Source: an uncultured Pelolinea sp. (GTDB lineage Bacteria; Chloroflexota; Anaerolineae; Anaerolineales; Anaerolineaceae). Taken from it: 64,000 nt of DNA. Location: NCBI GenBank assembly GCA_964612815.1, contig CAZTCV010000001.1, positions 392,885 through 456,884 of the forward strand. Direction: 5' to 3'. Shown here in pieces: positions 6,777-61,333 of the stretch (positions are counted from its first letter, which is position 1; each line of letters starts with the position of its first letter). Below the pieces are notes generated by a model that ran no database searches, was not told the origin of the DNA, and saw only the letters and a program-made list of their open reading frames with translations. The position numbers and the translations under genes are program-made.

Positions 6777-8201
6777 CTATTTTTGCACGAGAACGAAGAG
6801 GGCACCTTCCGCGATGATGGTGGAGATGACGCCGTCTTCAACAACCACCTGTTGCTCGATCCACTGCCCATTCTGCCAGACGAGGATGGCGAGGTTCGCG
6901 GTATCCTGGTCTGCATCGAGATAGAAACCAACTTCGATCTCCTCACCAGCGGCAACATAAGTCTCGAAGGTCAGGCCATCGACAATATTGAGGGTGGATG
7001 CTTTGAGCAAGGTGGCGCCATCCGGAAGCGCGAAAGGAATTGTTTCCAGCGCTTCGAGGACGAGTGATGCCTCCTGGCCGCACAGGGCGGGGATGATGGC
7101 ATAGACTTCGCCTTCGATATTCAGTTTGGACTGTACTTCGCAGCTGAGGGGATAGAGCACGGAACCGGTGACGGGGATGATGGTGATGGTATCGCCAGTT
7201 TGAACGGCGGTCACAGGAATTGCCACAGCAGCGCTGCTGGAAGAAGATTTTTTGGCCTGATCGATGACATCGTCGACGACCGCTTTGTCGATCACAAGGT
7301 TGCGGATCTCGTGGATGTTGGTGGCGCTGGCAGTGGAAGCGGTGAAGCCAAATTTGACGGTCGCGGGGATGATGCCGGGGAGAAGAAGGTCTTTGAAGAG
7401 CTGTTCCGGTTCGGTATCCGCGCCAAACTGCATGGTGAGCGTGAGCGAGAATTGCTGCTCAACGGGGGTGAACATGATGGAGACGTTGCGATAATCTGAT
7501 CCAGTCTGATCCGGGCGTTCATTGGCATTGCGAATGTCGATCCCTTGCAGCAGCCGATTCGTTCCATCGATAAACTCGTATCCATCAAAACCATCGCCTG
7601 CGCCGCGGATAGAGACTGAATCCTGGGTGCGGCCATGTCCGCCATTGCGGCCTTCGCCTGCGTTAGAGAAATTTCCAAATTCGTCCAGTCCAATCCCGAC
7701 GACAGCATTGCTGAGGCCTTTGGTCACTTTGTGGCGGGGAGCGTAGCCAAGGGAGCCGCCATAACCACCGGGGTTGAATTCATCCATGGTGGTTTCGCCA
7801 TCCATGAGGAAGAAAGTGATGCCATCGGCACCGGACCCGCCCCATGAGGTGTAATCAAATGTAAAGGCGAGTCCATTGGCCGTATCGAGAGCTTTATCAT
7901 AGACCGCATAGCCGATCTCGTAGCTTTCATTATCTGTCAGGCGCAGCCAGCCATCGCCTTCGGGATCGGTCTGGCCATCGCCGGTCATTTCAGCATCACC
8001 GCCGAGGACCCAATCTTCGGGCGCCTGCGGGCCACTGAAATCCACTGTTTCGGTGTTTTCGTTATTCTGGAAGAGCTCGATCTGCGGTTCAGCAGGTGTG
8101 CCACCGGGAGCGTCATCCGCGAAAACGGCGGACAAGTTTGAGACCAATAATGCCAGGGTGATGATGAGGGTAAAAATTGTGTTCTTTTTCATTTTATTCA
8201 T
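6777..8201 (-). CDS. secreted protein with an N-terminal L-type (legume-like) lectin domain
   Basis: Signal peptide (TLIITLALLVSNLSAVFA). GLAFTFDYTSWGGSGADGITFFLMDG and GGSLGYA are typical of bacterial L-type lectin domains. The C-terminal ~170 aa are uncharacterised. Confidence 0.65.
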   Translation of the reverse strand: MNKMKKNTIFTLIITLALLVSNLSAVFADDAPGGTPAEPQIELFQNNENTETVDFSGPQAPEDWVLGGDAEMTGDGQTDPEGDGWLRLTDNESYEIGYAVYDKALDTANGLAFTFDYTSWGGSGADGITFFLMDGETTMDEFNPGGYGGSLGYAPRHKVTKGLSNAVVGIGLDEFGNFSNAGEGRNGGHGRTQDSVSIRGAGDGFDGYEFIDGTNRLLQGIDIRNANERPDQTGSDYRNVSIMFTPVEQQFSLTLTMQFGADTEPEQLFKDLLLPGIIPATVKFGFTASTASATNIHEIRNLVIDKAVVDDVIDQAKKSSSSSAAVAIPVTAVQTGDTITIIPVTGSVLYPLSCEVQSKLNIEGEVYAIIPALCGQEASLVLEALETIPFALPDGATLLKASTLNIVDGLTFETYVAAGEEIEVGFYLDADQDTANLAILVWQNGQWIEQQVVVEDGVISTIIAEGALFVLVQK

Positions 8202-8312
8202 ATTTCCTTTGGTTATTTGTATTTTTCTCCATCAGTTTATGAAATGAGCGTTAATTCATCGTTAAAAAAATCACTCCGTATGTATAATTATTGGCATTGA
8301 CAGGAGGAAGAG

Positions 8313-11171: not shown

Positions 11172-11305
11172 ATTTATTTTTAAGAACCTCACAGCGCGGT
11201 TGTGATATCCAGCGGTGTTTATTCATTTACGTTATATATAAAGCTCTAATAAAAATCAGAGTGATGAAAAGGTACCATCATTAGCAACAATATCAATAAA
11301 ATAAG

Positions 11306-11758
11306 ATGAATGCTAAACAAAAGACAAGAACATGGATCGTGATCGCTTCTGCGGTTACGATCGTCATAGCTGGCGTGGTATATCTGGCATTGACGACAGA
11401 CCCGAACGCGATATCGCCTGTGAATGACGGATATGACCAATACCGCGATTCACTGGCAAACGCGAAGGGAGCGTTTGACCTGGGAGAAGCGTTATTCCTG
11501 GATGTTCGCACGAGCGAGGAATATGCAGACGCGCATATCAGCGGTGCGGTATCGATTCCGCTGGGGGAGCTCGCTGAAAACGCGCCGAACGTGGATAAGG
11601 GCGCGCTGATCTACACATACTGCACCTGACCAAGCGAAGCCACAAGCGCCCGTGCGGCGGAAATATTGAGTTCGATGGGATATACGAATGTGTACGCGAT
11701 CGTGGGCGGTTTTCGCGCCTGGATTGATGCGGGATATCCGGTGGTAAGCGGGAATTAG
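11306..11758 (+). CDS. membrane-anchored rhodanese-domain protein interrupted by an in-frame TGA (11627-11629) at the catalytic-Cys position; candidate selenoprotein or disrupted gene
   Basis: The 107 aa ORF ends …LIYTYCT-TGA. The same frame continues PSEATSARAAEILSSMGYTNVYAIVGGFRAWIDAGYPVVSGN-TAG, which is the missing C-terminal half of a rhodanese domain. A strong terminator follows 11758, not 11629. Confidence 0.7.
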
Positions 11759-48826: not shown

Positions 48827-49003
48827 TTATTCGAACAATTTTAAATCGTCTTTGGATAAGAATTTATAAAGCTTTGTGCCTGTTTCAGGGTCAACCGCGC
48901 GAGCGGCTTTGCGGCCGTTCTTGAGCGTTTCGATGGTTACTTTGCTGGTATCCACAAAGACGTCTTTCTTATCCTTCAATGAATAAAATTTTAACTGCGC
49001 CAT
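48827..49003 (-). CDS. small (58 aa) lysine-rich hypothetical protein, below the ORF-track cutoff
   Basis: Manual translation: MAQLKFYSLKDKKDVFVDTSKVTIETLKNGRKAARAVDPETGTKLYKFLSKDDLKLFE. AAGGAG RBS 7 nt upstream of ATG 49001-49003. Confidence 0.55.
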   Translation of the reverse strand: MAQLKFYSLKDKKDVFVDTSKVTIETLKNGRKAARAVDPETGTKLYKFLSKDDLKLFE

Positions 49004-49193
49004 TCGTACTCCTTTCTGTTAGGTTGATGAATAATGAAGCGGTGATGAACCCCCGTTGAATGAATCATTGTTCAGTAATCATATTATACAAAGATAAAAA
49101 GGGTTTAATTCTTAAAAAACCCACGCTTGTATCTGCTGGTCATTTGAATGAAAACCCCTATAATTAGGTTTTATTTTTCAAAGGCAGCTTGAT

Positions 49194-50162
49194 TTGAGAT
49201 CCAATATTGATGAAAAGAATAAGGGGTTTGCGCTGGCGTTTGGCAGCGCGCTGGTGCTTTCGCTGACAGCGATCTTCATCCGTCATCTGACGCAAGCCTA
49301 TGCATTGCCGGCGCTGGTGCTGGCGTATTGGCGTGAAGTTTTCACGGCAGCTGGTTTATTCCTGTTTTTTCTGGTTCGAAATCCGAAACTGATCGGCGGG
49401 ATAAAAGGCCATGGCAGGCTGCTGACAGGGTATGGTCTGGTGCTGGCTGTGTTTAACGCGCTGTGGACGCTTTCCGTTTCACTGAATGGAGCTGCCGTTG
49501 CCACGGTGCTGGCTTATTCATCAGCCGGTTTCGCGGTACTTTTGGGGTGGCTGATCCTGGGTGAACTCTTAACCACAAAAAAGATCATCGCCACCGTGAT
49601 GAGCCTGGCCGGATGCGCGCTGGTGGTAGACGCGCTTAACCCAGATGTATGGGAGATCAACTTGGTGGGCATGGCGGCGGGCATTGCTGCCGGCATATTT
49701 TACGCACTTTACAGCATTATGGGACGCGCGGCGAGTGAAAAAGGCCTGAACACATGGACTACGCTGATGGTCATCTTCGCGATCGCATCGGTGTTTATGT
49801 TGTCGTTCAACGTATTCTCTTTTGGGATGATCCCGGGCGCAGCGGATACTCCCGCTGATATTTTTTGGCCGGGCGGTGACAGGACAGGCTGGTTGATCCT
49901 GATCACGCTGGCTATCGGGCCAACCCTGATAGGATATGGATTGTATAATGCGGCGCTGCAACACCTTGAATCGAGCATCACCAACCTGATCGTGACGATT
50001 GAACCGGTGTTCACTGCCGTGATCGCTTATTTTCTGTTTGGCGAACTGTTCTCCGCGACACAGATCGGCGGAGCGGTGCTGATCATGAGCGCGGTTTTGG
50101 TTTTACGGATAAAAGGAAAAGGGAAGTCGCCATTGGTTGGCGCTCATCAAAAAAGGCGCTGA
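49194..50162 (+). CDS. EamA/DMT-family transporter
   Basis: 322 aa, 10 TM segments, duplicated EamA halves, TTG start. Confidence 0.8.
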   Translation: MRSNIDEKNKGFALAFGSALVLSLTAIFIRHLTQAYALPALVLAYWREVFTAAGLFLFFLVRNPKLIGGIKGHGRLLTGYGLVLAVFNALWTLSVSLNGAAVATVLAYSSAGFAVLLGWLILGELLTTKKIIATVMSLAGCALVVDALNPDVWEINLVGMAAGIAAGIFYALYSIMGRAASEKGLNTWTTLMVIFAIASVFMLSFNVFSFGMIPGAADTPADIFWPGGDRTGWLILITLAIGPTLIGYGLYNAALQHLESSITNLIVTIEPVFTAVIAYFLFGELFSATQIGGAVLIMSAVLVLRIKGKGKSPLVGAHQKRR

Positions 50163-50174
50163 AGAGCGCCTTTT
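50151..50174. terminator. bidirectional intrinsic terminator between convergent genes
   Basis: AAAAGGCGCT-gaag-AGCGCCTTTT, overlapping the EamA stop codon. Confidence 0.75.
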
Positions 50175-50192
50175 GATAAGGAAATATTGTGA

Positions 50193-51434
50193 TCAATCCT
50201 CAAATTTCCAGATCTCGTTGAGAATGCCTTTTGCAGTGTCGAGATCAGGAACGAGATGGTTGAGCATCATTGCCCGCAAGGCTTTGTTGTAATCCCTTTC
50301 CACGATTGCTTCCACCCATAAGATTTCAAAGGTGGCGTTAAGGCGGACCATGGCTTGCAGGTCGAGCGGGGTTTCGCCTGGCTGGAGCGGAGTGAAACCA
50401 TGCGCGCTGACGAGGGTGGGTGTTTCGATGATGGCATTGGGCGGCATCCAATCGACGGTATCAGCGTTGACGACATTGATGGTGAAGACCTGGTTGGTAT
50501 TATTGGCGTGGGCGAGCATGACCGGCACAACGATATCGCGGTACCAATGGGCGCCGCGTTCTCCCAGCTTATCAGGTACTTTGCCATCGGCGTCGCGGTA
50601 GGCCTGCATGACTTCATTTTCAAACGCAAGCAGCTGTTCGGCGCGCACCTGTTCCTGCTGTGCCTGCTTTTCGTAAATGCGGTTGGCATGGTAATAGTAT
50701 TTGAAGTAGGAGGTGGGGATGCCGCCAATCGCCCTGGCGATCTCGGGATCGACCGGCAGACCGGGGACCTGGTCCAGTTTTTCAAGGATTGTGGGCATGA
50801 GGTTTTTACCCTGATAATGCACCTCGGTGATCCATCCAAAATGGTGCATGCCGACATACTGGAACCAGAGCGACTGATAGGGAATACCAAGCATGGCGGC
50901 GATGCCCTGGCCGATGCCAACAGGCGAATCACAGACACCGATCATGTTGACCTTAGAGTAGGTCACTGCCGCGTATTGGATGAAGCTATTGGGGTTGGTC
51001 AGGTTCAATACAAGCGCATGCGGCGCGTATTTTTCGATCGCCTGACAGTAATCCAGGACGACCGGGATGGTGCGCTTGGCGTTGTTCATGCCGCCCGGCC
51101 CGAAAGTTTCCTCGCCCGGGATGCCGAACTGTTTGGGGAAGCGTTCGTCATAGGCACGGGCATTGTATCCACCCACACGTATCTGATTGAGAATGTAGTC
51201 CGCTCCATCCAGGCCTTTGGACAGATCTGTCTCGTGGGTGATGGTGAGCTGAGGCTGAGCGCCCTGCACAAGCGCCGCACAGGCAGCCGCTACCTGTTCC
51301 AGTTTGGGTTTGGTGCGGCCAATCAGACAGATCTCCAATGGCGGGCGGTCTGGCCGGGCAAGCAGATCCTGCACCAACACCGGAGAGGCAATGGAACTGC
51401 CGCCCAGCACTGCTAGTTTCTTTTTTTCCTGCAT
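50193..51434 (-). CDS. glycoside hydrolase family 4 protein (paralog c)
   Basis: N-terminal Rossmann KLAVLGGSSIASP and Mn/NAD-site motifs MIGVCDSP and VGMHHFGW. Confidence 0.8.
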   Translation of the reverse strand: MQEKKKLAVLGGSSIASPVLVQDLLARPDRPPLEICLIGRTKPKLEQVAAACAALVQGAQPQLTITHETDLSKGLDGADYILNQIRVGGYNARAYDERFPKQFGIPGEETFGPGGMNNAKRTIPVVLDYCQAIEKYAPHALVLNLTNPNSFIQYAAVTYSKVNMIGVCDSPVGIGQGIAAMLGIPYQSLWFQYVGMHHFGWITEVHYQGKNLMPTILEKLDQVPGLPVDPEIARAIGGIPTSYFKYYYHANRIYEKQAQQEQVRAEQLLAFENEVMQAYRDADGKVPDKLGERGAHWYRDIVVPVMLAHANNTNQVFTINVVNADTVDWMPPNAIIETPTLVSAHGFTPLQPGETPLDLQAMVRLNATFEILWVEAIVERDYNKALRAMMLNHLVPDLDTAKGILNEIWKFED

Positions 51435-51457
51435 CAGAACCTTTCTGCTTCCTGCGA

Positions 51458-52639
51458 TCAGGCGCGGTCGTAGAAGGCGAGGATCGCTTCAGCCGTAATG
51501 ACCGCTTCTTCCTCGCTCATGGTTTCAAAGACGGGGATATTGAAAACGCGGCGCGCATACGGGCCGCCGACCGGGAAGTCGCTTTCTTTGTAACCGAGAT
51601 GTTCATAAGCTCCCTGCATGGGAACCATGATGGGATACATGGCAAAACCGCCGATATCATGGTCTGCCAAATAGATGAGCAGCTGCTTGCGCTCTTCCTC
51701 GGTAGGAGCGATGGTGGCGTAGGAATAATAGACGTGATGGCAGTAATCCTCAACATGCGGCAACTGGAGGGGCGTATCCGCGAGCATTTTGTCATAGATC
51801 GCGGCAATGTTGCGGCGGCGGTTATTCCAATCATCCAGATATTTCAGTTTGACGCTGAGCATGGCACCCTGGAGCTCATCTAGGCGGTCTTGAAAACCGA
51901 CCACTTCATGGATGAATTTGACCCGCTGGCCGACATAGCGCAACATGCGGATCTTTTCATTGAGCTCGTCGTCGCTGGTGGTGATGATGCCGCCATCGCC
52001 GTAGGCACCCATGTTCTTGCTGGGGTAGAAGGAAAAGGCGGCTGCATGGCCAAGGGAACCGGTGCGGCGGCCCTTGTAATAGGCACCATGGGCATGAGAC
52101 GCGTCTTCCATGACCCACAGGTTATGCTTTTTGGCCAATTCCATGAGCGGGTCCATATCGACGACGTGGCCATAGAGATGAACAGGGATGATGGCTTTGG
52201 TCTTCTCGGTGATGAGCGGTTCAACCAGCTCCGCGGTCATGTTGTAGGTTTTTGGATCCACATCACAGAAAACGACTTTTGCGCCGCAATATGAGGCGGC
52301 GAAAGCGGTGGCGACATAGGTGTTACAAACAGTGATGACTTCGTCACCGGGCCCGACTTCCATCGCTTCGAGGATGATATGCAGCGCTTTGGTGCCGCTG
52401 GAGACACCGATCGCGTATTTACTATCGCTATACTTAGCAAATTCCTCTTCAAATTTGCTTAGATATGGTCCGAGGGTGTATTTACCGGTCGGAAGCACTT
52501 TCTTGACGGCTTCCATCACCTCGTCACCGATCTCTTCCCACTGACGTTCCAGATGGCCGCTGCCGATCTTGGTCGGTTTTGTGAGCGCTTCCACCCAATC
52601 GGGAATTTCAATCTTTCTGCTCAGGTCAATCTTGGTCAT
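51458..52639 (-). CDS. DegT/DnrJ/EryC1/StrS-family PLP-dependent (keto-sugar) aminotransferase
   Basis: FSFYPSKNMGAYGDGG carries the PLP lysine. 393 aa, with family-typical DASHAHGA. Confidence 0.9.
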   Translation of the reverse strand: MTKIDLSRKIEIPDWVEALTKPTKIGSGHLERQWEEIGDEVMEAVKKVLPTGKYTLGPYLSKFEEEFAKYSDSKYAIGVSSGTKALHIILEAMEVGPGDEVITVCNTYVATAFAASYCGAKVVFCDVDPKTYNMTAELVEPLITEKTKAIIPVHLYGHVVDMDPLMELAKKHNLWVMEDASHAHGAYYKGRRTGSLGHAAAFSFYPSKNMGAYGDGGIITTSDDELNEKIRMLRYVGQRVKFIHEVVGFQDRLDELQGAMLSVKLKYLDDWNNRRRNIAAIYDKMLADTPLQLPHVEDYCHHVYYSYATIAPTEEERKQLLIYLADHDIGGFAMYPIMVPMQGAYEHLGYKESDFPVGGPYARRVFNIPVFETMSEEEAVITAEAILAFYDRA

Positions 52640-52654
52640 GTTCTACTCCTGTTT

Positions 52655-53947
52655 TTATTTTTTAAAAAATTGCGGAAGGAATTCTTTATGCGCTTCGAGC
52701 ATCTCATCCACCAGCGCGACGGCGGTGGGGTAATCAGGCACGAGCGGGTTTTGCAGCATTGCCAGGATGGCATCTTTGCGGGAGCCGCTGACGGCCGCTT
52801 TGACAGTGGCGGATTCCCAGGCCTTGGCCTGCTGGCAGAGTGTGCGGATGGAATCCGGCAGCTTGCCCATCACCAGCGGCGTGACGCCATGGGCGCCAAC
52901 CACGCAGGGGACTTCAACGGACGCATCCGGCGGGAGATCGGAAATGGCGTCGCCGTTACGGGCAACAACGATCTGGACATCGCGGCGGTCGAGCATGAGC
53001 GAGAGGATGAGGTTGACGGCTGCCTCTGAATAACGGGCGCCGCCACGCTGGGCAAGCTCTTCCGGTTTGACCAACACATGGGGATCCGCGTATTTTTTGA
53101 GCAGATCCTGTTCCACCGCGAGCACAGTTTCGCCGCGAGATTTTTCCGCCGCTTTGGCTTCAGCCAGGCGGGCAGGGTGGTAATAGTAGTACTGCAGATA
53201 ATAGGTGGGAATCACACCCAGCGTGCGGATCAATTCCGGCTCCAGATGGGGCATCTCCTCATTTTCCGCAAATTTCTCGAGATTATCCATCAGGCTTTGG
53301 GTCATATCCTGGCCCTTGATGAATACTTTACGGACCCAGTTGACATGGTTCAAGCCAACCCATTCCAGGAACACATCGCGCGGTTCAACATGGAAGGCTT
53401 GCGCCATACCCGCGATCATGTTGATGGGATTGTTGCAGAGACCGACCACATTCAGATCGGTGTGTTTGAGAATGGCTTCGGTCATGATGCCGGACGGGTT
53501 GGTGAAATTGATGAACCACGCGTCCGGGGCGTATTTGTGCATATCTTTGGCGATATCGAGTGTGACGGGGATGGTGCGGAAGGCCTTGAATGTGCCGCCC
53601 GGCCCGGTGGTCTCCTGGCCGATGACGTTGTATTTGAGCGGGATCTTTTCATCAAGGATGCGAGCCGCCATTTTTCCGACACGCATGGAGGAAAGGACAA
53701 ATTTTGCCCCTTCGACCGCCTGCGGTCGGTTGGTGGTGAGGGTGACTTTGGTGTCCATCTCCGCATATCGCACCATGCGCTGGGCCATGCCACCGACGAT
53801 ATCGAGGCGTTCCTGATCGATATCATACAAAGTGATCTCGCCTACCTGCAGGTTGGATTCATTCTGGATGAAGCCATCGATCAGTTCCGGGGTATAGGAA
53901 CTACCGCCCCCGATGACTGCTATTTTTTCGATGCCTGGTCTTTCCAT
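52655..53947 (-). CDS. glycoside hydrolase family 4 protein, 6-phospho-beta-glucosidase-like (paralog b)
   Basis: KIAVIGGGSSYTPELIDG, VVGLCNNP and VGLNHVNW closely resemble ChbF/CelF-type enzymes. Confidence 0.85.
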   Translation of the reverse strand: MERPGIEKIAVIGGGSSYTPELIDGFIQNESNLQVGEITLYDIDQERLDIVGGMAQRMVRYAEMDTKVTLTTNRPQAVEGAKFVLSSMRVGKMAARILDEKIPLKYNVIGQETTGPGGTFKAFRTIPVTLDIAKDMHKYAPDAWFINFTNPSGIMTEAILKHTDLNVVGLCNNPINMIAGMAQAFHVEPRDVFLEWVGLNHVNWVRKVFIKGQDMTQSLMDNLEKFAENEEMPHLEPELIRTLGVIPTYYLQYYYYHPARLAEAKAAEKSRGETVLAVEQDLLKKYADPHVLVKPEELAQRGGARYSEAAVNLILSLMLDRRDVQIVVARNGDAISDLPPDASVEVPCVVGAHGVTPLVMGKLPDSIRTLCQQAKAWESATVKAAVSGSRKDAILAMLQNPLVPDYPTAVALVDEMLEAHKEFLPQFFKK

Positions 53948-54285
53948 TCTTGTACCTCCGTTTCAAGCTGCTTTACCCGTTTTAATACCTGAATATACTG
54001 CTCGCCATAATCGATCTCGCTCCAGGCGAGCATGAGCAGATCCAGCGCGTGGATGAGCAGCACGGAGAGTTCCACATCTTCCCCGCGGGCCGCTTTGGTG
54101 ATGATGGTGGTGTTGATCTTATGCGCCTGATTTTGTTCTGCATTGGCGTCCGCAAGCGCTTTTTCAGCCGCATCCCAGTCGCCTTCTTCGGCATACTGCC
54201 CCGCTTCTTTCGCGAAACTGCGGGCGCTGCCCGCGTGGAGGATGAGTTGAAAAAGTACCTGCTCCATTTCCTGTGAGATTGCCAT
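53920..54285 (-). CDS. PTS lactose/cellobiose-family EIIA component
   Basis: 121 aa helical protein. EQVLFQLILHAGSARS and HAQD-like QNQAHKI are typical of ChbA/CelC. Confidence 0.85.
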   Translation of the reverse strand: MAISQEMEQVLFQLILHAGSARSFAKEAGQYAEEGDWDAAEKALADANAEQNQAHKINTTIITKAARGEDVELSVLLIHALDLLMLAWSEIDYGEQYIQVLKRVKQLETEVQEWKDQASKK

Positions 54286-54309
54286 TAATGCTCCTTGTAT
54301 AATTCCATT

Positions 54310-54927
54310 TTATTGTAAATGTTGTCCATTATCAAATTGAATCGGTTTCCAGGTGCCGTTGTTGTTGTGGTGATATTCGGAGATGCCGCAGGCGATCCAG
54401 GGGCCGACAGCGCGCCAAACTGAGAGGTCTTTTTCCTGCAGATGCTGGGTGAGCACGCTGAGCAGTCCCCAATGGAGGACGATGAGCACGCGTTCACCGT
54501 GATGTTTTTCAGCGATAGCGTCAAAGGTGGTGGTGACGCGGTTGACAAAATTATCAGCGCTTTCACCGGAAGCCCAAAGGGCAAATTTGACCAGCGGCAG
54601 GGTGAGCTTTGGACCGGAAAGGTCCGGCTCAAACCATTTCATTGACTGCCCTTCGAGCCAGCCATAATAACGCTCTTTCAAACCATCAACCGGAACGGGT
54701 TCCATATTGATGGCATTACCGATGATGCTGGCTGTGGTCATGGCGCGCCCAAGGGGTGAGCAGTAGAAAGCATCAAAAGATTGACCGCGAAAGTGCTGCG
54801 CTGTTTTGTGCGCGTCCTGTAAACCCCTTTCAGAAAGGGGGCCATCGGTCTGGCCGTGGATCTTCTGGCTGGTGATGGTCTGCGTTTCGGCGTGGCGAAC
54901 TAACACCACCTGTGTTGATTGTTTCAT
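54310..54927 (-). CDS. histidine phosphatase (phosphoglycerate-mutase-like) family protein
   Basis: VVLVRHAETQ (RHG-type motif) and a later H in VLIVLHWG. Start set at MKQSTQ (ATG 54925-54927); the listed Arg/Ala-rich extension overlaps the upstream gene. Confidence 0.8.
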   Translation of the reverse strand: MKQSTQVVLVRHAETQTITSQKIHGQTDGPLSERGLQDAHKTAQHFRGQSFDAFYCSPLGRAMTTASIIGNAINMEPVPVDGLKERYYGWLEGQSMKWFEPDLSGPKLTLPLVKFALWASGESADNFVNRVTTTFDAIAEKHHGERVLIVLHWGLLSVLTQHLQEKDLSVWRAVGPWIACGISEYHHNNNGTWKPIQFDNGQHLQ

Positions 54928-54941
54928 TGAAAAAACCGTTC

Positions 54942-55595
54942 TTAATTTAGCGGTTGTGCTGAATCTGCCACGCAGCGGAACCCGACGAAGGGATTCTTTC
55001 TGCGGGGGGTGTGCATGCGGATGTGAAAAGTTTGCGCTTCCTCCGGACCATCGAGCCAATCTCCGCCGCGCAGCGGCGCGCGCAGCTGGGAGGGCTGGCC
55101 GCCGCCGATCCATTCCCACACGTTGCCGGCCATATCCTGACAGCCGTAAGGGCTATCGCCCTGCGGGGAGTATTTCCCGATAGGAGTGGTATCGCCGGAA
55201 AAGACGTTGGCGTTGTCAATGCTCCACTCGTTACCCCAGGGCCAGGTGCGGCCATCGCTGCCGCGGGCGGCTTTTTCCCACTCTTCATTGGTGGGAAGGC
55301 GCTTTCCGGCCCATTCGGCGTATGCGGTAGCGCTAAACCAGTTCACTTCCACGACCGGGTGATCGGCTTTCCCTTCGGGATAGGTCACTCCGCGCCAGTG
55401 TGATGGCTGGTCATGCCCGGTGGCATCGACAAAGAGTTTGTATTCCGCGTTGGTGACCGGGGTAAGGTCAATGAAGTATTCCGCTGTCTGCTGTTTTTCC
55501 TGATCTTCGCCAAAAAGGAATTCTCCGGCGGGGATCTTAACCATTGCTTTTTCGATTTTTCCTGCCTTAAAGAGCGGGAGTTTTTTCTCTGCCAT
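54942..55595 (-). CDS. formylglycine-generating-enzyme (SUMF1/EgtB/PvdO) family protein, short cytoplasmic form
   Basis: VTNAEYKLFV, YAEWAGKRLPTNEEWEKAARG, GNVWEW and RGGDW are FGE-sulfatase domain hallmarks. No signal peptide. Confidence 0.8.
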   Translation of the reverse strand: MAEKKLPLFKAGKIEKAMVKIPAGEFLFGEDQEKQQTAEYFIDLTPVTNAEYKLFVDATGHDQPSHWRGVTYPEGKADHPVVEVNWFSATAYAEWAGKRLPTNEEWEKAARGSDGRTWPWGNEWSIDNANVFSGDTTPIGKYSPQGDSPYGCQDMAGNVWEWIGGGQPSQLRAPLRGGDWLDGPEEAQTFHIRMHTPRRKNPFVGFRCVADSAQPLN

Positions 55596-55623
55596 TTTTT
55601 TACTCCTAAGAAATCATTTCTTC

Positions 55624-56418
55624 TTAATCTTTAAACGTATTGATAAGCCAATAATAGGCAGCGATAAACGCTGCAAGATAATAAATTGCGGTAGCGATGG
55701 AGATAGGCGCGGGGGTGATACCGACTGATACCTGTCCGGCTTCGGCTCCGCCCAGAATAAGTTGGATGGAGATAACCAGCGCCATGAAGAGTGTCATGGC
55801 AAGCACAGCGATCCAAAAACGTCCTTTCTTGTGGCCAATGGATTGGGCTGTGAGGACGCCCTGGACGGCGCTGACAGCCAGAAAGGCGACGCGGAACAGA
55901 ATGAGGGCGATGATACTGGCTGAAAGGAGCAAGGCATTACTGGTAGAGATCGCTTCGACCGTGATGTTGGATGCGGTGTTGCCAAACAACACCTGGAAGC
56001 CAGCGCCAACAAGGATGATACCGGTAAAAACCTGCGCTACGAGCCCTGCGCCAAAACCAAGCGCCAAGCCGTCCGCCATGAGGGCGGGGGCAGGCTGGTC
56101 TTTACTTTTGATCCTGAGCACGATCAGCATGCCAAGCCCGATGAAAAGGGCGGCTATGAGGGCGCTGAAAAAGATAAATGAAAAATCGAGCGGCTGTCCG
56201 GTAAAACCAACTGATGCAGCGCCTTGATACATGACCTGGCGCAGAATACTGCTAAAAAATTGATTAATGAGATTGGTGACGAGCCAAAGGCCAATGCCCC
56301 AATAGACCAGGTCGCGCTTGTAGTCCGGGCTATAGCGGCTGATGAGCCCCATCGGCAGCCCGGGTGAAAAGATGAAGATAAAACCGCTGGCGATCACCAG
56401 CAAGGCACGCAAAAACAT
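55624..56418 (-). CDS. polytopic membrane protein of unknown function
   Basis: 264 aa with about 7-8 hydrophobic segments and no catalytic motif recognised. Confidence 0.6.
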   Translation of the reverse strand: MFLRALLVIASGFIFIFSPGLPMGLISRYSPDYKRDLVYWGIGLWLVTNLINQFFSSILRQVMYQGAASVGFTGQPLDFSFIFFSALIAALFIGLGMLIVLRIKSKDQPAPALMADGLALGFGAGLVAQVFTGIILVGAGFQVLFGNTASNITVEAISTSNALLLSASIIALILFRVAFLAVSAVQGVLTAQSIGHKKGRFWIAVLAMTLFMALVISIQLILGGAEAGQVSVGITPAPISIATAIYYLAAFIAAYYWLINTFKD

Positions 56419-56458
56419 AGGAGACCCTTTGTATTTAAATTGTAGTTGAGCTTAAAAT

Positions 56459-56800
56459 CTATTGTTCCTGTCCTTTGAGGGCGGTCATGATCTGTTCAAA
56501 GATCTTTTCGCCATCGATCATGCCATAAGCAACGGAATCGATATTTTCAACGACGATACCGAGCGGTTCAGCGACCTGATCGATACTGCGTTTCTTGAAA
56601 CGCGCCTGGGGGGCGATGAGGACGATATCGACCGGGTCTTCCGCGAAATTCCAGCGGCCAATCTCTGGTACGTCAATCGCTTTGATCTCAAAAGGAACGC
56701 CTGCTTCTTCGGCCACTTTGGTGGTTTTTTGCTCGATCAAGCTGGATGACATGCCAATCGCGCAAACCATTAGAACTCTGATTTTCTTTTTTTCTGCCAT
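56459..56800 (-). CDS. PTS lactose/cellobiose-family EIIB component
   Basis: KIRVLMVCAIGMSSSL carries the phospho-Cys loop. 113 aa. Confidence 0.85.
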   Translation of the reverse strand: MAEKKKIRVLMVCAIGMSSSLIEQKTTKVAEEAGVPFEIKAIDVPEIGRWNFAEDPVDIVLIAPQARFKKRSIDQVAEPLGIVVENIDSVAYGMIDGEKIFEQIMTALKGQEQ

Positions 56801-56844
56801 TTCTTCTCCGAAAATGAAAATATTTTGACTTGATGGTTAGTATA

Positions 56845-58233
56845 TCATCTAAGTTTTGGAAAATAATCACCATGCTGGTCGAGATAATCATCAAGGATCG
56901 CGCGGGCGATCTCGAATGAAGGTACGAGCGGATGGATGGTGAGCGCTTTGAGGGCCAGATCGTATGAGCGCTCAACCGCAGCCTGGATGGTGAGCTGTTC
57001 GTACGCTTTGACCGCGTTCAGCAACGCCAAATTTTCAGCGGGGATAGTTCCAACCGCAAAGGGGCGCACAACGCCATTGGAAACGAGGCAGGTCGCTTCA
57101 ACGACAGCGTCGTGATCCATGCCCGGGATAGCACCGCGGTTGGGAACGTTGAGGATCATCAGTTTAGACGCATCGGTGAGCGCTTTGATGACGTTTAAGG
57201 CAACTGCGGAATATCCTTCAGCGGATTCATCCATCGCCTGTTCCACATCCAGCTCATTGGCCGATTCCATTTTTACCTGTTCAAATGTTTTACCGGTTTC
57301 AAGCGACATGTAGGTGCCGTGGCGCTGATCGAGGTAACGCAGGTAGATGGCGTGGATCTTGGCGGGGTCGTCTTCCTCATCGCGGATGCGGGCGAGACTG
57401 CTGTAGAGCTCGTCATTAAAGGGCTGGATCTGCAAGGCGCGGCTGATACCGGATTTGACCAGATTCTCCACTGATTCGCGCGGGTGATAATAGAAGTAAT
57501 TGTATTCATTCGGCAGCGCGCCGCGCGCCGCGATTTCCGCCCGGGTGACATGGATGTGATCGAGGTATTCATCCACGGCGGGATCATCGCTGAAGATCTT
57601 TGGCAGCATATCAACGCCATCCAGATAGAGCGCGCGCATCCAGCCGAGGTGGTTGATGCCGTAATAATCGGGGAAAAGACGGTCGTAATCCACATTGAGC
57701 AGCTGGGACGCACCGCGCATCATGTTGGCGGGGTTGTCACAAATGCCGACCGTATGTTCGAAACCAGCGACGCGGGTGATGGCTTCGGTGACGATACCGG
57801 CGGGGTTGGTGAAATTGATCAGCCAGGCATGCGGCGCAAGTTCTTTGATGAGATGGACATAATCGAGAATGACCGGGATGGTGCGCAGCGCCATGGCGAA
57901 ACCGCCGGGACCGGTCGTTTCCTGGCCAAGGACACCATATTTGAGCGGCACCTGCTCATCGATGACCCGTGAGGCAATTGACCCTTCACGGAAGGTGGTG
58001 ACGATATAGTCCGCGCCCTTAATAGCTGCGCGCGCATCGGTGGTCCATTGCAAGTCGAATTTGGGCTGCTTGACCAGGCGCGGTTTACAGGCGAGCTTGA
58101 TCAGCTCGAGGCGTTCGGGGTCGATATCCATCATGCAGACTGTATCGAGTGGGAGCTGATCCTGAAAATTGAGAATACTTTGAATGACGAGCGGGGTGCG
58201 CACACCCCCTGCACCAATAAATGTTAGTTTCAT
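56845..58233 (-). CDS. glycoside hydrolase family 4 protein (paralog a)
   Basis: MKLTFIGAGGVRTP, TVGICDNP and YGINHLGW. Confidence 0.8.
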   Translation of the reverse strand: MKLTFIGAGGVRTPLVIQSILNFQDQLPLDTVCMMDIDPERLELIKLACKPRLVKQPKFDLQWTTDARAAIKGADYIVTTFREGSIASRVIDEQVPLKYGVLGQETTGPGGFAMALRTIPVILDYVHLIKELAPHAWLINFTNPAGIVTEAITRVAGFEHTVGICDNPANMMRGASQLLNVDYDRLFPDYYGINHLGWMRALYLDGVDMLPKIFSDDPAVDEYLDHIHVTRAEIAARGALPNEYNYFYYHPRESVENLVKSGISRALQIQPFNDELYSSLARIRDEEDDPAKIHAIYLRYLDQRHGTYMSLETGKTFEQVKMESANELDVEQAMDESAEGYSAVALNVIKALTDASKLMILNVPNRGAIPGMDHDAVVEATCLVSNGVVRPFAVGTIPAENLALLNAVKAYEQLTIQAAVERSYDLALKALTIHPLVPSFEIARAILDDYLDQHGDYFPKLR

Positions 58234-58300
58234 AATTCCCTTCTATAAAAAAGGGGACGCGGCACGCCGCATCCCCTGATCGAACGATGAAAAAGCGGGC

Positions 58301-59578
58301 CTAGTGCTTGACGGCTGCTTCTTCTTTTTCCATCACCTGTTTCTCCCAGGCCTTGAAGGCGGGGAACCAGATGATGCCTGGAATGACGAATTCAACAAGC
58401 AATGCAAGAATGATCGCGCGCCAGTCGTAGCCGGTGGCGAGGAACATCAGGATCGGTGTTGGCAGCGTCCAAGGCGCTGCAATGTAGGTCGGGTTGACCA
58501 ACCCAGCCGCGGTGGCGAGGTATGCAACCGTGGTGTTGAGGAAGGTGATGACGATGAAGGGGATGGCCAAAACGGGGTTGAAGATGACCGGGGCACCGAA
58601 GGTGATCGGTTCATTGATATTGAAGATACCGGGCCAAACACCCAACCAGCCGACTCTGCGGAGCCGCTCAGATTTGGAGCGGGTGAAGTAGATGGCGAGC
58701 GGCAGGGTTGCGCCGGAGCCGCCGGGAACTACGAAGGAGCGGAAGAGCTCGGTGTAGATCGCTGTTGGTTTCATACCAGCTGCCACTGCCTGCGCGTTGG
58801 CGGCGATGTTTGCCTGCCAGACGGGTTGGAGGGCGATACCGATGGTGAGGTCACCATGGATACCCATGGTCCACAGGAATGCGTGGAAGGTTTCCGCAAT
58901 GGCTGCCGCGACATAGGTGGAAGCAGCGGGAACGACCGCGCTGAGGACCTGGAACAGGCCGGCCGCGAGATCGAAGTTGAGCACGAAGCGGATCAGCCAC
59001 CAGCCGAATGCCAAAACGGCACCGGGGACGAGGGCTGCGAACGCAGCGGTGATTGCCGGGGGAACGCCATCGGGCATCTTGATGACCATGTTGCGTTTCA
59101 TGAAGAAGTTGAACACCTCAACAGAGATAACAGCAACCACGATCGCGGTAAACATACCGGAATTGTCCAGGAATGTGCCGGCTTCGCCATCCGGAAGTCC
59201 GGGGCTGGCGACGAGGATAAAGGACATGAAAGCAAAGAATACCGGCATGAGGGCATCCAAGCCACGGCGGCGGGCCAATGAATAGGACACTGAAAGAACA
59301 ACATACAGTGACAGCAGCCCGAAGGTGACGCTGAAAACGCTCCATAGTGAACCGGAGATATTCTCTGGCAGGACACTCTCAAAATAGCATGCTGCTTCAT
59401 CCCGGAAGCAAAGCGGGAATTGCAGGACGACCAATACGAGCGCGCCGACAATGATCAGCGGCATGAGGGCGACAAAACCATCACGGATGGAGGCAAGGAT
59501 TGGCTGATCGAACACGGGAGCCAATTTCTCCATAAAGCCGGTCATGGCATCTGCCCAGTTTTTCTTTTTTTCTGGCAT
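58301..59578 (-). CDS. PTS lactose/cellobiose-family EIIC permease
   Basis: 425 aa, about 10 TM segments, N-terminal MEKLAPVFDQPILASIRDGF typical of ChbC/CelB-type EIIC. Confidence 0.85.
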   Translation of the reverse strand: MPEKKKNWADAMTGFMEKLAPVFDQPILASIRDGFVALMPLIIVGALVLVVLQFPLCFRDEAACYFESVLPENISGSLWSVFSVTFGLLSLYVVLSVSYSLARRRGLDALMPVFFAFMSFILVASPGLPDGEAGTFLDNSGMFTAIVVAVISVEVFNFFMKRNMVIKMPDGVPPAITAAFAALVPGAVLAFGWWLIRFVLNFDLAAGLFQVLSAVVPAASTYVAAAIAETFHAFLWTMGIHGDLTIGIALQPVWQANIAANAQAVAAGMKPTAIYTELFRSFVVPGGSGATLPLAIYFTRSKSERLRRVGWLGVWPGIFNINEPITFGAPVIFNPVLAIPFIVITFLNTTVAYLATAAGLVNPTYIAAPWTLPTPILMFLATGYDWRAIILALLVEFVIPGIIWFPAFKAWEKQVMEKEEAAVKH

Positions 59579-59721
59579 TTGACTTACTCCTTTTTAATTA
59601 ATAAGATTGATAAGAATTGATTGGTCTACAACACGTTTATATATCGCGTCCCGAGGCACCTCCTTTTTCAGATGAATTTTTATAAAGTGTGATTATGAAA
59701 CGATAAGTGCAAACTCCCTGG

Positions 59722-59753
59722 AAAATAAAACACCCTGCTGTTGAAGCAAGGTG
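59722..59753 (-). terminator. intrinsic terminator inside the long leader upstream of the PTS operon (candidate attenuator)
   Basis: On the minus strand: CACCTTGC-ttcaaca-GCAGGGTG followed by TTTTATTTT, about 145 nt upstream of the EIIC start codon. Confidence 0.5.
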
Positions 59754-60053
59754 CTGGCATGTTGAACGGAAAGGATTCGGCGAATCCAAATAAAAGCAAA
59801 TAGAGCTGAAAGGGTTCCAGAGTATTGATCCATGTTAATCTTCCCTTTTTGTTATTATCATTATACAAGAAACCACCGAATTTTTGACCATGAAATTTGG
59901 CTTAACTTCAGTGACGGTCATCATGTACTTTTAATAAACACACTTTACGCATGGTGGTTACGACTTAACCATATCAAATTTATCGTGTGTTTTCAAGTAT
60001 TTCCAGATAAGAAAACACCCCGTGATTTCTTATTCCGGATTCGAAATTTGAAC

Positions 60054-60079
60054 AAAAAAACCCTCACAGGAGGGTTTTT
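60054..60079. terminator. intrinsic terminator immediately 3' of tRNA-Leu
   Basis: A7-CCCTC-acag-GAGGG-T5. On the minus strand the T7 run follows the stem. Confidence 0.7.
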
Positions 60080-60081
60080 GA

Positions 60082-60163
60082 TGCCGAAGGTGGGAATCGA
60101 ACCCACAATCCCAAGGGAACACGAGTTTGAGTCGTGCGCGTATGCCAGTTCCGCCACTTCGGC
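60082..60163 (-). tRNA. tRNA-Leu (anticodon CAA)
   Basis: Reverse complement GCCGAAGTGGCGGAACTGGCATACGCGCACGACTCAAACTCGTGTTCCCTTGGGATTGTGGGTTCGATTCCCACCTTCGGCA. It shows a 7-bp acceptor stem, anticodon stem CACGA/TCGTG with loop CTCAAAC, a long variable arm and T-loop TTCGATT. Confidence 0.9.
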
Positions 60164-60262
60164 TAGTGTGATGGAAGTATATCCAAGAAAATTAACGCGG
60201 TCAAGACGTGGAAAAGGCGAGATGGGCATATAATTGTTTCAAAAAACAGGAAAAATGAAATT

Positions 60263-61333
60263 ATGCGATTAGGGATCATCGGTTTGCCCCAGGCAGGAAA
60301 AACGACCATATTTAACGCGCTCACCGGCGGAGACCAACCAGTCGGCGCGTCGATCGGGCGGATGGAGGTGACCACCGCGGTGATCGATGTGCCTGACCAG
60401 CGGGTAGATGATCTTTCGGCGATGTTCAATCCGAAGAAAACGATCTATGCCAAAGTGAATTATGCTGACGTGGCCGGGCTGGGCGGGGGACAGGATAAGG
60501 GTGAGATCAGCGGCCAGCTGCTGAACCAATTGACGCAGATGGACGGATTCATTGAGGTGGTGCGCTGTTTTGAAAGCACGATGGTGCCGCATGTGCATGG
60601 CAGTGTGGACCCACTGCGCGATATCGCGCAGATGGATACAGAATTCCTGCTGAATGACCAGATCATGGTGGAACGCAAGCTGGAACGGCTGGCGGAAGAG
60701 CGCAAGAAAGGCGCGGGGCGCGACAAGGGATTGATCGAACGTGAGATCGCGTTATTTGAGCGCCTGCAGGCGTTCCTGGGAGAGGGAAAACCATTACGTG
60801 ATATCACACTGACGGATGAGGATGAGAAGATCATCTCTGGTTTTGGTTTCTTGAGCCGCAAGCCGCTGATGATCCTTTTAAATCTGGGTGACGGACAAGC
60901 GCAGCCGGATATCGTTTACGCGCACCAGCGCAGCAGCACTCTCGGATTGCAAGGGAAATTGGAGATGGAGCTGGGACGGTTATCCCGCGAAGATGCGGAG
61001 ATGTTCATGGCGGAATATGGGATCGAGGAGCTGGGGCTGAGCCGGATGATCCGTGCTTCCTATGAGCTGCTGGGATTGCTCTCGTTCTTCACTGTGGGTG
61101 AAGATGAGGTGCGGGCATGGACAGTGCGCCGAGGGGCGCTGGCACCGGAAGCAGCAGGAGAGATACACACCGACCTGGAAAAAGGATTCATCCGGGCGGA
61201 AGTGATCACGTATGATGACCTGATGGCGTGCGGCTCGATGGCAGAGGGACGGGCGAAGGGGAAGCTGCGCCTGGAGGGAAAGCAATACCCCGTTCAGGAC
61301 GGGGATATCATTTCTGTTCGTTTTAGCGCTTAG
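60263..61333 (+). CDS. ychF: redox-regulated/ribosome-binding ATPase YchF
   Basis: GIIGLPQAGKTTIFNALT P-loop and a C-terminal TGS-like end (…GKQYPVQDGDIISVRF). Confidence 0.85.
   Translation: MRLGIIGLPQAGKTTIFNALTGGDQPVGASIGRMEVTTAVIDVPDQRVDDLSAMFNPKKTIYAKVNYADVAGLGGGQDKGEISGQLLNQLTQMDGFIEVVRCFESTMVPHVHGSVDPLRDIAQMDTEFLLNDQIMVERKLERLAEERKKGAGRDKGLIEREIALFERLQAFLGEGKPLRDITLTDEDEKIISGFGFLSRKPLMILLNLGDGQAQPDIVYAHQRSSTLGLQGKLEMELGRLSREDAEMFMAEYGIEELGLSRMIRASYELLGLLSFFTVGEDEVRAWTVRRGALAPEAAGEIHTDLEKGFIRAEVITYDDLMACGSMAEGRAKGKLRLEGKQYPVQDGDIISVRFSA

Follow-up and report, generated by a model that had tools for sequence, protein, structure and literature searches.

A conserved ten-gene chb-type PTS operon in Pelolinea with an aminotransferase-GH4 module and two fixed partner proteins

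What does a Lac/Cel-type phosphotransferase system (PTS) operon do with three family 4 glycoside hydrolases (GH4), an aminotransferase and further proteins that chb operons do not have? The question is raised by the window, a 64,000-nt stretch of contig CAZTCV010000001.1 from an uncultured Pelolinea sp. (GCA_964612815.1), whose positions serve as coordinates throughout. The genome containing the window comprises 2.72 Mb in 17 contigs and is 95% complete, and the nearest relatives of the locus carry the label Pelolinea (Anaerolineae, Chloroflexota). Domain calls with Pfam and NCBIfam confirmed a ten-gene operon at 50193-59578 on the minus strand, with all genes co-directional, and the gene content and order proposed by a first-pass annotation of the DNA were borne out for all ten. 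The genes, in order, were as follows:

58301..59578, minus strand: PTS EIIC, lactose/cellobiose/chitobiose family (PF02378, 163 bits, 9.5e-48; TIGR00410, 312 bits, cut-off 236)
56845..58233, minus strand: GH4a, 462 aa, with CDNP motif, GAGGVRTP loop and an insert of 25-35 aa (Pfam, solved-structure matches, tree)
56459..56800, minus strand: PTS EIIB, Lac/Cel type (PF02302, 6e-10, 40 bits)
55624..56418, minus strand: YhfC-fold membrane protein, 264 aa (structure and feature similarity; no Pfam match)
54942..55595, minus strand: FGE-fold protein, cytoplasmic, 217 aa (PF03781, 8.9e-43)
54310..54927, minus strand: histidine phosphatase (branch 1), 205 aa, start predicted (PF00300, His_Phos_1, 1e-36)
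53920..54285, minus strand: PTS EIIA, Lac/Cel type (PF02255, 4.2e-25, 88 bits)
52655..53947, minus strand: GH4b, 430 aa, candidate ChbF/CelF-like 6-phospho-beta-glycosidase with CNNP motif (PDB 5c3m, 5.8e-120, full length)
51458..52639, minus strand: DegT-family aminotransferase dependent on pyridoxal phosphate (PLP), 393 aa (PF01041, 3.2e-115, 385.6 bits)
50193..51434, minus strand: GH4c, 413 aa, divergent GH4 and partner of DegT (Pfam; CDSP, MHH, GE-ET and RGAHWY motifs)

Intergenic gaps were 14-67 nt, and the single overlap, of 28 nt, was between EIIA and GH4b. Because the gaps are short and one pair overlaps, the ten genes most likely form one transcription unit, in which two older modules are combined. 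The operon is thus confirmed and is conserved among relatives; it differs from known chb-type PTS operons by an aminotransferase-GH4 module that has not been described before and by two constant partner proteins. In the following, G000 denotes the genome of the window and WIN its locus; other G numbers denote genomes, L numbers the loci compared, f numbers families and C numbers contigs.

The whole ten-gene order was kept in 12 Pelolinea-type loci, in two of which EIIC was cut by the contig end, and three shorter contigs showed the 3' genes only. One of the 12 (L093) belongs to the isolate P. submarina MO-CFX1, which has a complete genome. Protein identity ranged from 36 to 95%; the identities to P. 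submarina were 79% for EIIC, 73% for GH4a, 69% for EIIB, 36% for the membrane protein, 78% for the FGE-like protein, 50% for the phosphatase, 67% for EIIA, 83% for GH4b, 81% for DegT and 71% for GH4c. In L090/L104 and L095/L102, GH4a, EIIB or DegT appeared in two pieces, reflecting frameshifts or assembly errors.

All three EII domains scored above their cut-offs (PF02378, PF02302 and PF02255, with the bit scores listed above). EIIC matched best the cellobiose IIC models TIGR00359 and TIGR00410 (312 bits) and gave 155 bits with the model of E. coli ChbC. Cys13 of EIIB and His79 of EIIA, which we take to be the phosphorylated residues, were invariant in the alignments with E. coli ChbB and ChbA, respectively. 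EI and HPr, which had not been seen near the operon, were found by a search of the genome: HPr is encoded twice (C2:256814-257071 and C12:8517-8765), and the EI N-terminal domain was located in one 582-aa frame adjoining the HPr gene on contig C2. Since EI and HPr are encoded elsewhere in the genome, the PTS of this operon can be complete as far as its genes indicate, and the objection of a PTS left non-functional by missing EI and HPr does not apply. The view that PTSs are uncommon in this lineage had to be given up, as 184 genomes out of 401 sampled from the class (a count that includes two genomes flagged unpublished), and 126 of the 274 high-quality ones, had the EI N-terminal domain. The second HPr-like gene (G000:C12, about 6900-8765) lies just downstream of the gene for a 697-aa PRD-domain protein, which is likely a PTS-controlled regulator.

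The operon was traced outside Pelolinea by searching 400 genomes of the class with GH4a as the query, from which 16 regions were taken. EIIC stood beside the GH4a-like gene in seven of these, and the GH4a-like gene was solitary in the other nine. The five uncut regions (G065, G110, G145, G023 and G227) contained the membrane protein, FGE-like, EIIA and GH4b genes, and DegT and GH4c were not there; the G026 region, completed later, also carries the core. This core (EIIC, GH4a, EIIB, YhfC-fold membrane protein, FGE-like protein, EIIA and GH4b) recurs in at least five other Anaerolineae families (f20, f25, f28 and f53, and partly f57), and outside the Pelolinea-type loci it stands without DegT-GH4c or with the pair placed elsewhere. 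On this distribution, the operon splits into two older modules, the PTS/GH4a/GH4b core and the DegT-GH4c pair.

The sister operons carry genes of amino-sugar metabolism. A GlmU-like sugar-1-phosphate nucleotidyl/acetyltransferase was found in G110, G145, G023 and G227; G023 also has a YdjC/ChbG chitin-disaccharide deacetylase (PF04794, 2.4e-70; NF002559, 212.6 bits, below its cut-off of 227) and a second EIIC, G065 encodes a NagC-like ROK regulator together with a histidine phosphatase, and G026 has MupG/GH170 between GH4b and DegT. Because of these neighbours, the core is predicted to be chb-like and to serve the use of amino-sugar beta-glycosides. In G026, G110 and G145 (L208, L209 and L263), the gene after GH4b encodes a DUF7916 protein (about 315 aa, PF25509, E about 1e-121), once together with MupG/GH170, a position that provides a lead on the function of that family.

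The same data bear on a simpler explanation, an ordinary cellobiose or beta-glucoside PTS operon in which the additional genes are mere neighbours that share no function with it. The preference of EIIC for the cellobiose models over that of ChbC agrees with it, as do the source annotations, in which relatives of GH4a and GH4c are labelled '6-phospho-beta-glucosidase'. However, the ten-gene order persists down to 36-80% protein identity, the short gaps and the overlap point to a single unit, the FGE-like and membrane protein genes accompany the PTS across families, and amino-sugar enzymes occur in the sister operons, so that we consider this explanation very improbable.

The locus was then compared with known systems. 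Like E. coli chbBCARFG and the Bacillus IIB-IIC-IIA-celF-chbG operon, it encodes EIIC, EIIB and EIIA of the Lac/Cel type with the phospho-accepting Cys and His (aligned with E. coli ChbB and ChbA) and a GH4 with the C-N-x-P motif (GH4b), and sister operon G023 even has YdjC/ChbG. The statement that canonical chb/cel operons have one GH4 held for the E. coli operon and for that of the B. thuringiensis plasmid, whereas the operon of the window has two more GH4s, the YhfC-fold and FGE-fold proteins, a histidine phosphatase and DegT, and has neither ChbG nor ChbR. Its regulation would involve a leader hairpin or LacI, in contrast to the AraC-type ChbR of E. coli chb. The Streptomyces csnR-K locus for chitosan oligosaccharides comprises a ROK regulator, an ABC importer, the GH4 CsnH and a sugar kinase. 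A ROK regulator and a GH4 linked to oligosaccharides of glucosamine would be common to it and the present family (compare the rhizobial GH4 of the GH4a clade, encoded beside a kinase, and the NagC-like ROK of G065), but import there is by an ABC transporter with a kinase and here by a PTS. According to PMC12791066, the E. coli GH4 ChbF acts on glucosamine-6P-glycosides after deacetylation by ChbG, and the chb cluster of L. paracasei uses a MupG-family GH170 enzyme, ChbE. In S. aureus MurP-MupG, which recovers peptidoglycan disaccharides, in the L. paracasei chb cluster and in the system proposed here, an amino-sugar disaccharide is imported by a PTS and then split in the cytoplasm by a 6-phospho-glycosidase, and MupG/GH170 is present in sister operon G026. 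Unlike in those two known systems, cleavage in the window's system would be by GH4, the PTS is of the Lac/Cel type, and a MupG relative was not found in the window's genome (tblastn, 1e-8).

The three GH4 genes of the operon are the only ones in the genome. They are old paralogues, since their pairwise identity is only 29-32%; they fall into three separate clades, the Cys/His and Tyr motifs are intact in each of them, and the objection that they might be recent identical duplicates fails. The GxCxxP and NHxxW motifs that the first-pass annotation had named in all three were present as GICDNP and INHLGW in GH4a, GLCNNP and LNHVNW in GH4b, and GVCDSP and MHHFGW in GH4c; in GH4c, the second motif departs from the named form, the Asn preceding His being replaced by His. 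PF02056 and PF11975 were both above their cut-offs in all three proteins. Alignment with solved 6-phospho-glucosidases recovered C-[DN]-x-P, [NH]-H and Y-x-x-Y-Y in each, of which we take the Cys and His to be the metal ligands and the Tyr-rich motif to be the base motif of GH4. The NAD-binding loop was canonical, GGGS(S/T)YTP, in GH4b, GAGGVRTP in GH4a, and GGSSIASP, one Gly shorter, in GH4c, and each variant was conserved inside its own clade.

The solved structures nearest to all three GH4s were the 6-phospho-beta-glucosidases 1s6y and 5c3m, followed by BglT and 6-phospho-alpha-glucosidases, with non-phospho enzymes far behind. GH4a matched the 6-phospho-beta-glucosidases in two stretches flanking its insert, and GH4c matched them at 1.1e-62. 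In a maximum likelihood tree of 25 rows, including E. coli ChbF, MelA and six annotated plasmid GH4s, all three stood on the phospho-glycosidase side, apart from MelA (100/100). The GH4a clade comprised 10 rows (100/99), including a GH4 of S. meliloti pSymB encoded beside a sugar kinase, and GH4c formed a long-branch clade of its own. GH4b was 48% identical to CelF of the B. thuringiensis plasmid IIB-IIC-IIA-celF-chbG operon and reached no NCBIfam equivalog cut-off. The clades were distinguished by the following features:

GH4b clade: Cys motif CNNP (ChbF CNIP, CelF CNVP); canonical NAD loop
GH4a clade: Cys motif CD[NASG][PA]; insert of 25-35 aa, GAGGVRTP loop
GH4c clade: Cys motif CDSP; MHH, GE-ET and RGAHWY
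Annotated and solved 6-phospho-alpha-glucosidases: Cys motif CDMP

The rule that CDMP marks alpha and CNVP marks beta enzymes was taken solely from the solved and annotated sequences aligned in this analysis.

The second module was examined by a class-wide search for GH4c, which yielded 13 GH4c-like loci in 12 genomes of the 400-genome sample. DegT lay directly upstream on the same strand in nine of the 13. In two further genera of the family, DegT (55 and 49% identical) is followed by a GH4c-like gene (45 and 43%) with an overlap of 4-7 nt, and a GntR/UTRA regulator precedes the pair in both. The 13 GH4c-linked DegTs formed one clade (100/100), with 18 unlinked DegTs, including the second DegT of the genome itself, outside. 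The GH4c module was also held by seven of the eight PTS-core genomes, adjoining the core in G026 and G204 and placed elsewhere in G065, G110, G145, G317 and G023; it was not found in G227, the eighth. DegT and GH4c therefore make up a separate, coupled module. The first-pass description of non-canonical passengers in a PTS operon does not fit these genes, nor does it fit the membrane and FGE-like proteins, which were the most constant PTS companions across Anaerolineae families.

The neighbours of the pair included GntR/UTRA regulators, ROK/FGGY kinases and parts of ECF or ABC transporters, together with a cupin phosphoglucose isomerase in three loci and a double-SIS protein in two. In G065 (L264, G065:C438, about 7127-11580), one strand carries DegT, GH4c, HPr, EI, the double-SIS protein and transketolase. 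In G145, G110, G317 and G414, GH4c is fused to a C-terminal glycerol-1-phosphate-dehydrogenase-like domain (5fb3, 8.8e-28). The fused frames are 762-798 aa long (L253, G145:C12 1498-3783; also L254, L255 and L244) and place two NAD-dependent domains directly after DegT. General DegT relatives (38-52% identical) showed no GH4 or PTS genes in any of 67 non-Pelolinea loci, in a scan that used patterns from the Pelolinea alignment and from which the GH4c-linked DegTs of other genera, found later via GH4c and the family sample, were absent.

As expected of the DegT/DnrJ/EryC1/StrS aminotransferases, DegT has the conserved Lys of the S-x-x-x-x-K segment: Lys208, in FSFYPSK(208)N, was invariant in 8 orthologues and aligned with fsfyptkn of 7b0d; we take it to be the PLP-binding Lys. 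The closest characterised solved relatives of DegT were QdtB (6e-96), DesV (1e-82), a Campylobacter-type enzyme and WbpE (3.5e-69), followed by perosamine synthases (6e-66), ArnB-type enzymes (about 1e-47 to 1e-51) and NtdA (7e-45). QdtB, DesV, the Campylobacter-type enzyme and WbpE are, on our understanding of the C3/C4 labels, C3 aminotransferases of nucleotide sugars. GH4 enzymes act by oxidation at C3 with bound NAD+, elimination, water addition and reduction (PMC10628242). Because DegT is nearest to C3 aminotransferases and GH4 oxidises C3, interconversion of 3-keto and 3-amino groups on a 6-phospho-sugar would be the most economical reading of DegT-GH4c. Catabolism would be the likelier direction, because regulators, kinases, PTS proteins and isomerases surround the pair.

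In summary, we regard it as a roughly even call that the operon handles PTS-imported amino-sugar glycosides, with a chb-like core and DegT-GH4c as a keto/amino module. In this scheme, in which the substrate class, C3 regiochemistry, direction of the pathway and every enzymatic activity are predicted from sequence, phosphate would pass from EI to HPr, EIIA His79 and EIIB Cys13, and then to O6 of a beta-linked amino-sugar di- or oligosaccharide crossing EIIC, probably derived from chitin, chitosan or cell walls. GH4b and GH4a would split the 6-phospho-glycoside by NAD+/Mn2+-dependent oxidation, elimination, hydration and reduction. DegT, by PLP transamination, and GH4c, by NAD(H) redox at C3, would interconvert a 3-amino and a 3-hydroxy hexose 6-phosphate (or 6-phospho-glycoside) via the 3-keto compound. 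This would be kanosamine-type chemistry run catabolically, delivering an ordinary hexose 6-phosphate to glycolysis; the histidine phosphatase would dephosphorylate a sugar phosphate of the pathway, and the YhfC-like and FGE-like proteins, which have no catalytic residues of their families, would have an accessory role.

A bolder proposal, which we consider doubtful, is that GH4c is not a glycosidase but a hexose-6-phosphate C3 dehydrogenase/3-ketoreductase with a dedicated DegT, in an undescribed 'reverse kanosamine' route widespread in Anaerolineae. Such a route would deaminate 3-amino sugars or their 6-phospho-glycosides; as C3 of these has no hydroxyl, they could not be opened by a normal GH4. 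The pair could thereby extend GH4 chemistry from hydrolysis to keto/amino interconversion. A literature search, with subscription journals largely outside its reach, found nothing on this operon, a Pelolinea PTS, an Anaerolineae chitobiose PTS or a GH4-DegT pair. Anaerolineae are abundant fermenters of sediments and digesters with very few cultured members, and operons of this kind hint that amino-sugar glycosides, released from chitin, chitosan or the walls of dead cells, have a pathway of their own there; the cultured P. submarina, bearing the same ten genes, makes all of these leads testable.

The operon is not a member of the kanosamine NtdCAB/KabCAB pathway; only the logic is alike. NtdC and NtdB are presumably of the Gfo/Idh/MocA and HAD types, respectively, and Pfam and NCBIfam identified no oxidoreductase or HAD domain encoded in the operon. 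DegT is closer to C3 aminotransferases of nucleoside diphosphate (NDP)-sugars than to NtdA (6e-96 versus 7e-45). The kanosamine route (PMC8788734) consists of a glucose-6-phosphate 3-dehydrogenase, a DegT-type 3-oxo-glucose-6-phosphate aminotransferase and a phosphatase for kanosamine-6-phosphate, to which GH4c, DegT and the histidine phosphatase would correspond in role. Unlike in the Bacillus systems, the dehydrogenase and phosphatase here would come from unrelated families (GH4 and histidine phosphatase), and the context is one of uptake and catabolism.

The match of roles in that source suggests a biosynthetic alternative, in which GH4c would oxidise C3 of a PTS-delivered or glycolytic hexose 6-phosphate and DegT would aminate it, after which the histidine phosphatase would remove the phosphate and an EamA protein would export the product, a kanosamine-like amino sugar used as an antibiotic or envelope precursor. 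This is kept alive by the phosphatase within the operon and by the conserved exporter-type EamA neighbour (8 of 10 loci), and glucose-6-phosphate could come from the phosphoglucose isomerase and the kinases that neighbour the pair at other loci. However, the pair lies behind GntR/UTRA regulators and inside uptake operons, as is typical of catabolism, neither phosphatase nor EamA was seen in the examined stretches around DegT-GH4c outside PTS operons, and in G065 the phosphatase goes with the PTS core and is separate from the pair. A PTS with two more glycosidases is also an odd frame for such a route, and we regard it as unlikely.

The relatives of DegT raise another alternative, salvage through nucleotide sugars, in which an imported amino-sugar would be recycled to the cell's own wall or glycan, with DegT acting on an NDP-3-keto sugar and GH4c as a third glycosidase for another linkage. 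The nearest characterised relatives of DegT act on dTDP- or UDP-keto sugars, sister operons carry the GlmU-like nucleotidyl/acetyltransferase, and GH4c keeps all hydrolase motifs. Yet neither a nucleotidyltransferase nor an NDP-sugar dehydratase/dehydrogenase is encoded in the window's operon, a GlmU-like relative was not found in the genome (tblastn, 1e-8), and the GH4c-linked DegT belongs to a clade apart from the other DegT of the genome. The strict coupling of DegT and GH4c with overlapping genes would also be left unexplained, and we regard salvage as unlikely.

Returning to the catabolic scheme for amino-sugar glycosides, several observations weigh against it. Relatives of YdjC, the GlmU-like protein, MupG and DUF7916 were not found in the window's genome (tblastn, 1e-8; genome 95% complete), and the deacetylase, GlmU-like and MupG genes of the sister operons are not in the window's operon. 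The GH4b clade stands beside ChbF/CelF in the tree, yet the fork joining them is unresolved. In four of the 13 GH4c-like loci there is no DegT within 1.5 kb, and in L096 the GH4c-like gene is solitary, with uninformative surroundings. The monophyly of the linked DegTs may partly mirror taxonomy, with 17 of the 18 unlinked rows coming from other phyla. The nearest characterised relatives of DegT use nucleotide sugars, not sugar phosphates, the match to NtdA is far weaker, and to our knowledge its top match 7b0d and fourth match 7n63 are uncharacterised. GH4c keeps every motif expected of a hydrolase and may be a plain third glycosidase. Finally, the phosphatase and the exporter-type EamA fit synthesis and export better than catabolism, and the isomerases and kinases beside the pair are compatible with either direction.

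The idea that DegT stands in for a missing NagB was dropped. A classical nagB was not found in the genome, in which nagA is present twice; a double-SIS candidate deaminase is encoded on contig C3, and DegT looks like a carbon-C3-type enzyme. The double-SIS protein (C3:169416-171747) shares 57% identity with its counterpart next to DegT-GH4c in G065, and its gene adjoins one of the EPSP-synthase/MurA family.

The two fixed partners were assigned by fold. The membrane protein had no Pfam match, and its orthologues in other families matched PF10086 weakly, down to 2.7e-6. Against YhfC clusters of a protein atlas it gave a feature score of 0.92 for 29 of 30 matches and a structural TM score of 0.73. 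YhfC-type intramembrane proteases presumably have a conserved catalytic Glu/His, and neither Glu nor His occurred among the 24 invariant columns of an 8-orthologue alignment; the protein is probably non-catalytic. The FGE-like protein had CalU17 and SUMF2 as nearest solved relatives and no signal peptide. The catalytic Cys pair of FGE, which we place near the C-terminus, was missing: the region RGGDWLDGPEEAQT has no Cys, and orthologues in other families have at most one there. Both proteins look like non-catalytic members of enzyme folds and fixed partners of this PTS, and as catalytically 'dead' proteins they offer a lead of their own. No GH4 or PTS gene was found by tblastn near 78 loci of FGE-like relatives, in which one weak phosphatase match appeared. 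The FGE-like family is broad, and its PTS-linked subfamily is reached solely via the PTS genes.

The longest open reading frame (ORF) of the phosphatase spans 54310-55119. Because the domain begins at residue 71 and a Met at 54927 leaves a 14-nt gap to the preceding gene, this Met, giving 205 aa, is most likely the start. The best solved relative was PhoE (1ebb, 2e-12). In the Pelolinea-type locus L097 (3639-4875), the phosphatase gene is tandem-duplicated.

Elements that may control the operon were found upstream of EIIC, within the following boundary:

60082..60163, minus strand: tRNA-Leu(CAA) with terminator, upstream boundary of the operon (Rfam match)
59860..59867, minus strand: putative extended -10-like box TGTATAAT of the operon leader (consensus match)
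59693..59833, minus strand: leader ORF, 46 aa, its 3' part running through the hairpin (translation)
59729..59755, minus strand: terminator-like hairpin CACCTTGC-N7-GCAGGGTG followed by TTTTATTTT, candidate attenuator (11 pairs)

The TGTATAAT box was kept in the six loci without an upstream LacI (WIN, L089, L090, L095, L100 and L108), and the hairpin, with a fold energy of -24.1 kcal/mol and a z-score of -1.95, was near-identical in all six. Leader ORFs of like length ending in ...NTLLxxQGVLFS stood at the same position in L089, L090 and L095, where conservation at the RNA level and at the peptide level is indistinguishable. In four loci, including P. submarina, a LacI gene takes the place of the leader. 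The first-pass annotation had seen no PTS regulator; this small ORF running into a terminator hairpin, and LacI at the same place in P. submarina and the three other loci, speak against that. A CAT_RBD (BglG-type antiterminator) domain was not found in the genome, and PRD proteins are present on its other contigs. With no antiterminator of the BglG type found, the leader ORF and hairpin suggest possible control of this PTS operon by translation-coupled attenuation. In a Rfam search of 49000-60400, the tRNA was the sole match, and no family was assigned to the hairpin. A 133-aa ORF upstream of the operon (59832-60233, plus strand) was rejected as spurious, as it overlies the tRNA-Leu(CAA) and its terminator on the operon strand.

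The remaining features lie between the first two genes and beyond the last:

58252..58277, minus strand: strong hairpin between EIIC and GH4a (GGGGATG.GG...CC.CATCCCC; 11 pairs, 8 GC)
49194..50162, plus strand: EamA/DMT transporter, convergent with the operon (PF00892)

All 13 Pelolinea-type loci examined (13 of 13) have this hairpin, followed by a T-run that differs between them. It may be a partial terminator or affect mRNA stability, and may thereby determine how much EIIC is made relative to the enzymes. The neighbour of GH4c is EamA, at 51-67% identity, in 8 of the 10 Pelolinea-type loci compared, while other flanking genes vary, and a functional tie to the operon is possible on this conservation. 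The EamA gene is fragmented in L108, and in P. submarina a DegV gene lies between EamA and GH4c.

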